5,578 nucleotides of DNA from Promethearchaeota archaeon. Lineage in GTDB: Archaea > Asgardarchaeota > Odinarchaeia > Odinarchaeales > JBHLKK01. The notes beneath the pieces were generated by a model that saw only the letters and a program-made list of their open reading frames with translations, ran no database searches and was not told where the DNA came from. The stretch spans positions 19,887 to 25,464 of the forward strand of contig JBHLPL010000015.1 of assembly GCA_048939465.1 (NCBI GenBank), read 5' to 3'. The position numbers were made by a program, and so were the translations under genes. Positions 2,824 to 5,578 of this stretch are shown piece by piece. Position 1 is the stretch's first letter. Each line of letters opens with the position of its first letter.

Positions 2824-3546
2824 TTGGAGGAAAAATCTAATATAAAGCAAGAAGAGCTCATGAGTCTGCTTAAGGAACTGGAAGGCAAGACTGCCCTTGA
2901 GGCATCGGCCGTAGTTACAAAAGATGGGATGAGACTGGCATGCTCTGTCAGTGCTGAAATGGATGCAGATATTTTCTCCGCAGCCGCTGCTGCCATGGTA
3001 AATCTTGGATCAATGACCATAAGAAGGCTCAATCAAGGCAAGCTGAAGGAAATAATCGTTAGAGGAGACGAGGGCTATACGATGGTAACGGATTGCGGGA
3101 ATGATCTGATGCTTGTTGCTGCTGGAAGAGAGAGCTTCCGTTTAGGCTACTATCTTGGGGTTTTGAAGAAGTACGCAAGAGATGTATCAAAAATCATGGG
3201 TATTGTGGGTAAACCAGCAAAGCCACCATCAGAAGAGATAACGCCATCTGAGGCGACTCCTGCCGAATCGACACCCATGGAGGTACCATCAACCGGCGTT
3301 TCGCCGACTGATACACCATTGACAGAGGTTGCATCAACAGAATCAATGCCCGCCCCATCGGAAGAACCTGTTGCACCGTCAGAGGAAGAGACTTCGAGTG
3401 CTGAATCTGCTGCTCTAAGTGTACCGGAAACAGCTCCTTCTCAGAAGTCAGCCCAAGATGAAGAGAAATCAGCCTTGGAAGCTGAGAGAAAAGCGATATT
3501 AGAAGCGCTGAAAGCTCTCGGATGGGAAGAGTCATCGGGAGAGTGA
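2824..3546 (+). CDS. Roadblock/LC7 (MglB/LAMTOR-like) domain protein with a long low-complexity acidic C-terminal extension, 240 aa
   Basis: Residues ~8-125 show the Roadblock pattern: helix (ELMSLLKELEG), ASAVVTKDGMRL, FSAAAAAMVNLGSMTIRRL, GKLKEIIVRGDEGYTMV, LMLVAAG, LGYYLGVLKKYARDV. An ~82-aa P/S/T/E linker and a terminal helix follow. The TTG start is supported by the GGTGA SD. Confidence 0.88.
   Translation: MEEKSNIKQEELMSLLKELEGKTALEASAVVTKDGMRLACSVSAEMDADIFSAAAAAMVNLGSMTIRRLNQGKLKEIIVRGDEGYTMVTDCGNDLMLVAAGRESFRLGYYLGVLKKYARDVSKIMGIVGKPAKPPSEEITPSEATPAESTPMEVPSTGVSPTDTPLTEVASTESMPAPSEEPVAPSEEETSSAESAALSVPETAPSQKSAQDEEKSALEAERKAILEALKALGWEESSGE
3214..3459 (+). repeat. Low-complexity Pro/Ser/Thr/Glu linker with four degenerate PSE(E) units within the Roadblock protein
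   Basis: PPSEE, TPSEA, APSEE and APSEE, encoded by CCATCAGAAGAG, CCATCTGAG, CCATCGGAAGAA and CCGTCAGAGGAA. The segment has no aromatic residues. Confidence 0.7.
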
Positions 3547-3850
3547 ACCATTCTCGGCTCTCGCAAGGGGCTTCCGCCCTTGAACTCCGAATTTCTACTA
3601 GGTCTCTCTTTTTGGGGCAGGGAACTCGCTCTGAGGAGGATGTAGGCCGGTTCGTTTTCCTTCTTTATACAGTCGCGGGCTGAAGAAGCCTGCCCTTAAG
3701 CGATTAGCCCAAAGCCCTATTTTCCGTGTAGACTTCTCCTTTCGATCCTCCTTTCTTCCGAGATCAAAAGGTCTTAGACTCAGGTATCTAAGGAAGCATT
3801 CAAAAGTAGCGCAACCCATCCTGACGTTTGCGTATGGGTCTCCTTGCAAA
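3543..3850 (-). ncRNA. Candidate unannotated structured RNA (family unknown; possibly an orphan IS200/IS605 omega-RNA-like remnant)
   Basis: Complementary segments in plus coordinates: 3560-3568/3842-3850 (end-closing), 3813-3819/3834-3840, 3773-3779/3786-3792, 3730-3750/3760-3774, 3615-3621/3689-3695, 3660-3672/3680-3688, 3564-3582 (GGAA tetraloop on minus), 3545-3560 and 3634-3641/3745-3752. The imperfect positions are G-U pairs on the minus strand and A-C mismatches on the plus strand. Confidence 0.6.
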
Positions 3851-3873
3851 CAACAGATAAAAAGAAGGAAAGA
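3848..3873 (-). terminator. Possible U-rich archaeal terminator of the large membrane-protein gene
   Basis: The minus strand reads CTCTTTCCTTCTTTTTATCTGTTGTTT, a pyrimidine/T-rich tract about 50-75 nt after the stop at 3924. Confidence 0.35.
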
Positions 3874-3923
3874 GTGCCAACAATCCTATCTTCAATCCAA
3901 CGGTTTTGTATCGAATTTCGCAC

Positions 3924-5578
3924 CTATGATTTCCTCAGTTTTTCCAAGAACTCCCTTCTTTCTTCTGGCGGCAGGCTTTTGAGTTCTTCGGTGAGAATCA
4001 GCTTTTCTTCAGCGGAGATTATTTGCTTCTGTAAGAGTTCTTCCAGTGCGTCCTCTATCTCTTCTTCCGTTAGAACCTCTTTGGCGAGTTCTTTCTTGAT
4101 TAACGCTTGTTGTTCAGCCCTTGCTCCCACCAATGTTCTTATAAATTGATCTCTTTCTGAAGGCTCCATTCCAGAGAGCTCGGATACAAGAGCTTCTTTT
4201 TCACTCTCAGGTAAACTTGGGAATTTATCATAAACAACTTCTCGCAGTTTGGCAATCTCCGGAATCAGTTCTGCCTTCCCAGGAGAGGGGGCTAGTTCCG
4301 CTTCGGGCATCGATATTCCGGCGGACGCGAAGAACTTAGATTTACTTCCGCTTATCAGAGCTTCTCTCGTCGCGATTATCTCCTCTTTAACTTGCTTATT
4401 CTTTTTTATCGAACTTATAGTTCTTACTATCTTCTTGACAGTCGATGGAAGTCTTGCCCATCTGTAGTATCTTAGGGCTCCGTATCCTGCCGGAACAGCA
4501 GTAATCCCTATCATAAATAGCGCAAGAGTTAGGATAAGCGGGAACGGTGTCCCTATTGACAAGCTGAACCGAACGGATCCCGTAGGAGTATCATAGACTT
4601 CAAAGGTAGTATCTCCTACTGTTCTTCCTGGCAGTGCTACATTTAGATTTATCCAGTAATCTCCCGGTTCTAGGTCTTGCGTTGATATGACGGCCTCATA
4701 TGCGGTTCCCACAAGGCTAAGTCTGCCAGATATCGAGGTTCCCTCGATGAAATAGGTTATGTTGGCGTCTAGAATTGGCAACTGATTATCCGTATCCATC
4801 AATTCTACTCTAAGCGGATTATCCTCCCCTGCCGACACACTGGCATTCCATACCAGAAGGGAAATGGACGGCTGCAATTTTTCTGTGAGAACCGTTCTTG
4901 TATCCGCTATTGGTATTGCAGAAAGTTCATAGAATGTTTTGTTCGCGTACGCAACAGCGAGATACGATCCAGGTTTCATTGCTGAGGTGTTTAGTTCTAT
5001 CTCATATTCTCCGTTCCCGAGTGGTGTGTATGACCAGTAGCTGGAATTCCAATTAAAGGTAATGCCGGCATTCTCAATCGGACCTATTCTTGGATCCAGA
5101 TTACATGAATATTTGACAATCATACTTACGTTTCTTCCCCAGGGAACTTCAGCAGGATCCGGCTCGATGCTCATCAATTCTAAACTGGCTGACCACTCAT
5201 CTATTACTTGAAGAGGTATTGAGAATTGAATCGATTGATAGTATTGTGATATTGAAATCAAGACGATTATTGTATAATTCTCAGCATTCGAACCCGATGT
5301 ATTTAGACTGAAAGCATATAGTCCGGAAGAACCTGTTTGACCGAAGGGATTTTGGACTTCTTCCCAAGGAAGAATATAGGTTCCATTTGCGCCTGTCACA
5401 TTTCTGACAGGATCCATCACCGTATCGTTAGATTTAGCCCTAAATGTGACTGTTAGATTCTCTCCCAGTGCGGCTCGAAGCATTTTAGTACCGTCAACAG
5501 TTAGCTCGAAGTCTAGAGAGGAACCCCATGGCTCCACGTATGTAGGTACTGGAAGAAGATTTAAGGTGATATTCAGTT
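3924..5578 (-). CDS. C-terminal part of a large single-pass surface/S-layer-like glycoprotein with Ig-like beta-sandwich repeats, a TM helix and a helical cytoplasmic tail (5' end outside the window)
   Basis: The frame stays open from the GTG at 5537 to the window edge (LNITLNLLPVPTY-VEPWG...). Three repeats share G.Y...(L/I).T.....(G/N)Y: SGLYAFSLNTSGSNAENY, NGEYEIELNTSAMKPGSY and GTAYEAVISTQDLEPGDY. There are 13 N-X-S/T sequons before the hydrophobic segment FPLILTLALFMIGITAVPAGYGAL (4544-4473) and none after it. Basic residues follow the TM (RYYRWARLPSTVKKIVR). Confidence 0.85.
   Translation of the reverse strand, partial: LNITLNLLPVPTYVEPWGSSLDFELTVDGTKMLRAALGENLTVTFRAKSNDTVMDPVRNVTGANGTYILPWEEVQNPFGQTGSSGLYAFSLNTSGSNAENYTIIVLISISQYYQSIQFSIPLQVIDEWSASLELMSIEPDPAEVPWGRNVSMIVKYSCNLDPRIGPIENAGITFNWNSSYWSYTPLGNGEYEIELNTSAMKPGSYLAVAYANKTFYELSAIPIADTRTVLTEKLQPSISLLVWNASVSAGEDNPLRVELMDTDNQLPILDANITYFIEGTSISGRLSLVGTAYEAVISTQDLEPGDYWINLNVALPGRTVGDTTFEVYDTPTGSVRFSLSIGTPFPLILTLALFMIGITAVPAGYGALRYYRWARLPSTVKKIVRTISSIKKNKQVKEEIIATREALISGSKSKFFASAGISMPEAELAPSPGKAELIPEIAKLREVVYDKFPSLPESEKEALVSELSGMEPSERDQFIRTLVGARAEQQALIKKELAKEVLTEEEIEDALEELLQKQIISAEEKLILTEELKSLPPEERREFLEKLRKS
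3927..4217 (-). repeat. Four degenerate short helical repeats in the cytoplasmic tail of the membrane protein
   Basis: SLPESEKEALVSEL, GMEPSERDQFIRTL, IISAEEKLILTEEL and SLPPEERREFLEKL, arranged as two similar pairs separated by an E/K-rich helix. Confidence 0.6.

Follow-up and report, generated by a model that had tools for sequence, protein, structure and literature searches.

A probable ORF-less derivative of a TnpB-only IS200/IS605 insertion sequence between two convergent genes of an Asgard archaeon

The window analyzed in this study is a 5,578-nt stretch of DNA from an Asgard archaeal genome (G000). A sequence-only reading had proposed long-range RNA contacts within the 377-nt spacer (3547-3923) that separates two convergent genes, a Roadblock/LC7 gene (2824-3546, plus strand; PF03259) and an ORF of at least 550 aa (3924-5576, minus strand) with no Pfam match at E ≤ 0.001. 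We consider it very probable (approximately 0.9) that the minus strand of 3543-3856 is instead a degenerate, ORF-less internal-deletion derivative of a TnpB-only IS200/IS605 insertion sequence, similar to the palindrome-associated transposable elements (PATEs). The 314-nt element was recovered by nhmmer as a full-length copy of a repeat family and fitted exactly to an empty site; between its left and right ends, it retains only the final ~230 nt of tnpB, where the omega RNA is encoded. A PATE-like element with an omega-RNA remnant is an ordinary, known kind of object, and its host here is an Asgard archaeon. The complementarities on which the proposed contacts were based are chance matches in a purine/pyrimidine-rich relic, not conserved contacts.

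The boundaries of the element were defined by the orthologous Roadblock locus of a congener (G002), which is an empty site reading ...TTTCTAT|TCTCC. Excising exactly 3543-3856 from the window gave the best alignment to this junction (GGAGAATAAAAAG versus GGAGAATAGAAAG). On the minus strand, the element begins directly after TTTAT (3861-3857), the target motif and presumed TAM, and ends with GGTTCAC (3543); no target duplication is present. The left-end region (3760-3856) corresponds to profile positions ~16-100, which also flank TnpA/TnpB units, and contains a subterminal hairpin (CCCAU, 3838-3834, with AUGGG, 3819-3815) whose family consensus is CTCCATCC-GAGA-GGGTGGAG and which is down to 5 bp in the window copy. 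The right-end terminus, GUUCAC (3543-3548), is both the 3' strand of a pseudoknot-type pairing and the presumed TnpA cleavage motif. Palindromes at both ends are a feature of the family consensus, and the right-end hairpin shows compensatory changes in the family; in the window, the left one is reduced and the right one is left with five of nine pairs. No transposase or TnpB ORF lies inside the 314-nt element. The sole coding trace is a remnant of the tnpB C-terminal region (3557-3742, minus strand; residues ~357-417), which carries two in-frame TAA stops and was matched by six-frame protein comparison to a 417-aa TnpB of a second congener, G001 (E 1.7e-4, 43% identity).

Further copies were found by searching the window's own genome and its relatives at the DNA level. 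An nhmmer profile built from five copies was run on the 1.96-Mb G000 assembly and returned 14 full-length copies (300-365 nt), about 41 left-end-type matches, and 23 right-end-type matches. DNA-level matches were also obtained in seven of 400 genomes sampled from the phylum, belonging to three genera. An exact TTTAT preceded the left end in 19 of the 41 copies, and TTTAT or a close variant did so in most of them; AGTTCAC terminated 13 of the 23 right ends, and the GUUCAC terminus was invariant across all reachable homologues. The same left end and right end (...GGAAGCCCC..GGGG.AGTTCAC) flank genuine IS200/IS605 units, one on contig C105 with both TnpA (Y1 type; PF01797, 7.5e-37) and TnpB, and another on contig C2 with TnpB. 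The C105 gene (1180-1545) is the only Y1 TnpA gene of G000, and four matches to the TnpB TNB domain (PF07282) lie above the Pfam cut-off in this genome, where ORF-less derivatives greatly outnumber autonomous units. A second full-length subfamily comprises five copies of ~360 nt with a different interior (e.g., C138:15049-15403). A well-preserved copy is found at C127:3798-4134. C10:12038-12532 holds two elements arranged head to tail, with a few bases between the right end of the first (...GGGGTAGTTCAC) and the left end of the second; this arrangement suggests nested or tandem insertion beside a right end.

Parental elements bearing tnpB were detected in G001 and G002, both of the window's genus, and in G018, which belongs to another genus. 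In these parents, a TnpB-coding stretch of ~950 nt separates the left end from the 3'-terminal 230 nt. The TnpB ORF is intact in the G001 parent (L035:1515-2768, minus strand; 417 aa; PF07282, 2.9e-19) and is split into two ORFs in the G002 and G018 parents. At three loci (L035, L034, and L043), the final ~60 TnpB codons and the right end occupy the same stretch as the 3' 230 nt of the family, and the layout of the parents thus identifies this part of the ORF-less element. TnpB elements carry the sequence of their omega (guide) RNA in this region, at the 3' end of tnpB and across the right end. We also looked for TnpB ORFs directly upstream of other copies and found none; the parent was detected only in congeners. 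The window's own assembly (91% complete) yielded no intact cognate TnpB. Searching the genome contigs with the TnpB protein recovered only close relatives and consequently added no covariation for the pseudoknot.

The RNA structure of the family was derived from two alignments, one (A1) covering the final 235 nt of 29 distinct copies drawn from five genomes and the other (A2) covering 17 full-length ORF-less copies. Helices were identified by an all-against-all scan of column pairs in the 29-copy alignment followed by explicit pair counting, and their positions are counted back from the right-end boundary; RNAalifold applied to this alignment returned stems 3 and 4 only. In the family structure as a whole, 88.6% of cells were paired, compared with 38-53% in slid controls, and 43 compensatory cells were counted versus 12.5 in shuffles, none of 500 reaching the observed number. 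Part of this conservation is at the protein level, because the same bases encode the TnpB tail in the tnpB-linked copies.

The most upstream helix is a 10-bp hairpin at -171..-147 (window 3716-3707 with 3701-3692, minus strand, loop UAAUC; nine of ten pairs retained). It was paired in 88.6% of cells over the 29 copies, and six of its pairs, in 16 cells, were changed on both sides, which was reached by none of 500 shuffles. It is followed by stem 1, which covaries (GGGCUG/CAGCCC versus GGGCGU/ACGCCC in another genus); its remnant in the window (3644-3691, minus strand), at about 3691-3687 with 3648-3644, encloses ACGAAC (3655-3650), the 5' strand of the pseudoknot-type pairing, and has four of six pairs in register, or 5 bp with a one-base shift as judged by eye from the coordinates. 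A 33-nt segment in the loop of stem 1 (A1 columns 147-179; window ~3684-3656) was observed in the window's genus and has its own covarying hairpin, GCAGUC-UGU-GGCUGC (6 bp, 91.3% paired, three pairs changed on both sides), whose homologue in the window lies at 3669-3681 on the minus strand. Nine copies in two other genera (eight in G007/G018 and one in G049) lack the segment, including the tnpB-linked G018 copy on contig C228; it is a lineage-specific expansion of both the omega-RNA scaffold and the C-terminal tail of TnpB.

The terminal GUUCAC (-6..-1) is complementary to GUGAAC at -107..-102. This long-range pairing was possible in 94% of cells and complete (6/6) in 21 of the 29 copies, with no compensatory change, and it would form a pseudoknot because its 5' strand sits in the loop of stem 1. 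Stem 2 (family CCUCCC, -91..-86, with GGGAGG, -37..-32) was likewise paired in 94% of cells with no compensatory change; in the window, its strands are CCUCCU (3634-3639) and GGGCGG (3574-3579), both on the minus strand, and five of six pairs are retained. Both pairings lack compensatory changes because they hardly vary, and they are predicted from complementarity, MFE folding, and analogy with the ISDra2 omega RNA. Stem 3 (family CUCC-GAAA-GGAG) covaries in the family and is lost in the window (3604-3621, minus strand; two of four pairs), where an insertion found only in this copy (CCCCAA, 3617-3612) splits the site. Stem 4, the right-end hairpin (family GCCCCUUGC-GAAA-GCUAGGGGU; window 3550-3571, minus strand), has its GAAA loop at -20..-17 and shows compensatory changes between UA and CG and between CG and UA; its 3' arm is decayed in the window. 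When two tnpB-linked copies were folded independently by MFE (z -2.0 and -1.9), the closing helix, stem 2, and stem 4 were recovered in both and stem 3 in one.

These features show how the element came to lie at its site and suggest what its relatives may do. The element inserted 3' of TTTAT without target duplication, within the last codon of the Roadblock gene. The 3' segment of tnpB in intact relatives encodes the omega-RNA scaffold of TnpB, composed of the upstream hairpin, stem 1, the predicted -107..-102/-6..-1 pairing, stems 2 and 3, and the right-end hairpin. The ORF-less copies may have been moved in trans, as single-stranded DNA, by the Y1 TnpA of the genome; the evidence for mobilization consists of the one TnpA gene and the insertion polymorphism. 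Transcripts running through the right end might then provide a guide for TnpB supplied in trans.

Whether the window copy itself still works was judged from its state of preservation. If it did, it would be a mobilizable PATE, an omega RNA, or both, with a guide antisense to the 3' end of the Roadblock gene and TnpB supplied in trans. The literature describes PATE-like elements whose omega RNAs are acted on in trans (PMC10055086), a TnpA gene is present in the genome, and the window copy has kept the terminal GGTTCAC, stem 2, nearly all of the upstream hairpin, and a left end that is still recognizable. However, it is the most diverged of the 29 copies, with 62.8% identity to the consensus in the -107..-1 core, and its pseudoknot-type pairing is down to four of six pairs. 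The right-end hairpin required by TnpA has only five of its nine pairs, stem 3 is gone, the scaffold is interrupted by the 6-nt insertion, the MFE fold of the 3' 120 nt is worse than that of shuffles (z +1.18), and no intact cognate TnpB was recovered from the 91%-complete assembly. A working copy is therefore unlikely, and the window copy is probably a relic that neither moves nor functions.

Directly 5' of the element, and in the same orientation, lies the 550-aa ORF, the end of this gene being 62 nt from the insertion site. The window contains two sizeable minus-strand ORFs without a Pfam match at E ≤ 0.001, this one and a 315-aa ORF at 1679-2626; the 550-aa protein has a helical and charged C-terminal tail. 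At its other end, the element interrupts the Roadblock gene between bases 2 and 3 of the final sense codon. The right end, whose complement is GTGAAC, supplies G+TGA and has thereby converted an ancestral GAA TAA into GAG TGA (window 3541-3546, plus strand; empty site L080:2225-2240), so that the TGA stop codon of the Roadblock gene (3544-3546, plus strand) is derived from the element. The end of the Roadblock protein, ...KALGWEESSGE*, is identical in both orthologues, with and without the element. This is a case of an element entering the last codon of a gene and swapping its stop codon while the protein remains unaltered.

This arrangement raises the question of whether the host has co-opted the element as the 3' end of two convergent genes, in which case it would provide the Roadblock stop codon and possibly a terminator or spacer, and read-through from the 550-aa gene would yield an RNA antisense to the Roadblock 3' end. 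The G+TGA that closes the Roadblock ORF and the position of the element downstream of the 550-aa ORF are consistent with such a role. Nevertheless, the Roadblock protein ends identically in the congener without the element, the replacement of the stop codon is neutral rather than adaptive, and conservation of the insertion was not seen beyond this genome. We regard co-option as quite unlikely and a relic insertion as the better explanation of the locus.

The pairings proposed by the sequence-only reading were examined both for their expected frequency and for their conservation. All of the named segments are present. Read on the plus strand, AGGAGGAT (3634-3641) and ATCCTCCT (3745-3752) form a perfect 8-bp inverted repeat, which corresponds on the minus strand to the suggested pairing of AGGAGGAU (3752-3745) with AUCCUCCU (3641-3634). 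GGGCAGG (3615-3621) and CCTGCCC (3689-3695), the helix that this contact was thought to cross, are both present, as are UGGGCU (3711-3706) with AGCCCG (3681-3676) and GCUUCC (3797-3792, in the left end) with GGAAGC (3575-3570), these last two pairs on the minus strand. These complementarities are real, but they occur at chance level. In 200 dinucleotide-preserving shuffles of the element, taken here as 313 nt, at least one perfect Watson-Crick helix of at least 8 bp was found in 55.5% (mean 0.83; observed 1), helices of at least 7 bp had a mean of 2.9 (observed 2), and 6-bp helices with G-U allowed had a mean of 92 (observed 102). Such matches are easily found because the element is rich in purine and pyrimidine runs. 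The whole 377-nt spacer folded no better than dinucleotide shuffles on either strand (MFE z +0.68 and -0.53).

Conservation gave the same picture. Over the 29 homologues, the 8-bp AGGAGGAU/AUCCUCCU pairing was formed in 54% of cells, most cells containing non-pairs, and the loop at AUCCUCCU corresponds to the 5' strand of stem 2, whose predicted partner is 3579-3574. The GGGCAGG/CCUGCCC helix was paired in 52%, and its 3' arm falls largely within the 6-nt insertion found only in the window. GCUUCC/GGAAGC reached 69%, and the pairing of the tested set was equalled by 113 of 500 shuffles; its two arms belong to the left and right ends and are ~1.2 kb apart in the tnpB-bearing parents. The "long hairpin" that had been drawn from 3771-3762 with 3747-3738 was paired in 53% of cells in homologues, which carry at this position a shorter covarying hairpin (GAGGUC-UGU-GACCUC) that was paired in 90%. 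For both GCUUCC/GGAAGC and the long hairpin, pairing was within the range of shuffled or slid controls. UGGGCU/AGCCCG fared better in one respect, since 86% of its cells were pairable and the window maintains the pairing through a double change from A-U to G-C; it nevertheless fails because its 5' arm is taken up by the 10-bp upstream hairpin (which also occupies part of GGGCAGG) and its 3' arm by the 6-bp hairpin of the stem 1 loop, both of which covary, and because nine copies from other genera, including a tnpB-linked one, have lost the AGCCCG arm by deletion. The homologues thus keep their local hairpins and not the listed pairings.

Two further candidates were considered and rejected. The GAAC/GUUC stem of the sequence-only reading corresponds to pairing of GUGAAC with an internal GUUCAC, which is degenerate in tnpB-linked copies (3-6 of 6), while the terminal partner is nearly always complete (6/6); the GAAC at 3653-3650 has the terminal GUUC (3548-3545) as its predicted partner, and the internal pairing may at most be an alternative conformer. 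CGAGGG/CCCUUG, the counterpart of the proposed GGAA hairpin, was pairable in 92% but conflicts with stem 4, and it was rejected because it leaves the compensatory changes of stem 4 (UA to CG, seven copies) unexplained.

An Rfam 15 scan of the window at E ≤ 1 gave no match to any covariance model, and a scan of six related loci detected no family, with a single chance-level match outside the element. An independent structured RNA gene (regulatory, catalytic, or guide) that depends on the proposed contacts or switches between them is extremely unlikely: complementary segments do exist, the G-U pairs favor the minus strand, and UGGGCU/AGCCCG stays pairable in the window despite the double change, but the pairings are no more frequent than expected by chance, fail to persist in 28 homologues, compete with covarying hairpins, and are accompanied by neither an Rfam family nor a thermodynamic signal. 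The idea of a guide-type RNA with long-range contacts was right for the family, which descends from TnpB omega RNAs, although the partners are different ones.

The family can be compared with three known systems. The HqIRS families of Haloquadratum walsbyi are PATEs of haloarchaea, and one of them, HqIRS71, retains part of an IS1341-type (tnpB) C-terminal coding region (Dyall-Smith et al. 2011, PMC3119063). Like these elements, the present family has no ORF and apparently no terminal inverted repeats, carries subterminal palindromes in its consensus, causes no target duplication, and follows a short conserved 5' target oligonucleotide; it also shares with them an origin from IS605-type elements by core deletion, a large number of diverged copies, and strain-specific insertions. 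The differences are the Asgard host, the target (TTTAT) and terminus (TTCAC), and the fact that this subfamily keeps the full ~175-nt omega-RNA region and not just fused termini.

The second system is the omega RNA (reRNA) of ISDra2 TnpB, for which a cryo-EM structure has been reported (Nakagawa et al. 2023, PMC10097598). In both cases, the RNA is encoded at the 3' end of tnpB and extends through the right end. The predicted pseudoknot lies at -6..-1/-107..-102 in the family and at -5..-3/-103..-105 in ISDra2, where non-canonical pairs extend it at -6/-102 and -2/-106 (PMC10097598). Stem 2 lies at -37..-32/-91..-86 here and at about -36..-31/-85..-80 in ISDra2, with -35..-32 opposite -81..-84 in the solved structure, and the last hairpin has its tetraloop at -20..-17 in both (PMC10097598). 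Unlike in ISDra2, the family, whose structure is predicted from sequence, has a 33-nt insertion hairpin in stem 1 (in the window's genus), an extra covarying 10-bp upstream hairpin, and a predicted TAM of TTTAT in place of TTGAT, and there is no sequence similarity between the two.

The third system is provided by the PATE-like minimal IS elements of Geobacillus stearothermophilus, which encode omega RNAs used in trans (Meers et al. 2023, PMC10055086). As in that bacterium, the copies described here are gene-less and have ends in common with TnpB-bearing IS copies, and presumably one TnpA acts in trans while the guides serve a TnpB made elsewhere. In contrast to the bacterial elements, for which expression and activity data are available, the window copy has degenerated, and its assembly yielded no cognate TnpB.

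The ORF-less copies that have a complete scaffold, 14 in this 2-Mb genome, might be dispersed stand-alone guide-RNA genes that act with a TnpB or TnpB-derived protein in trans, in homing or gene regulation. We consider this very unlikely; if it were true, the window copy would be an antisense guide against the 3' end of the Roadblock gene.

The chief value of this analysis is a correction: what looks like an exotic, pseudoknotted RNA is very probably the dead remains of a mobile element of known type, with "tertiary contacts" that are due to chance. The analysis also shows that an Asgard lineage carries a large family of gene-less IS200/IS605 derivatives in which the guide-RNA module is retained. 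The scaffold of this family, which has no Rfam model, maps helix by helix onto the solved ISDra2 omega RNA, and this mapping provides a ready model for an archaeal TnpB/omega-RNA pair (the G001 locus L035) with a predicted TTTAT TAM.
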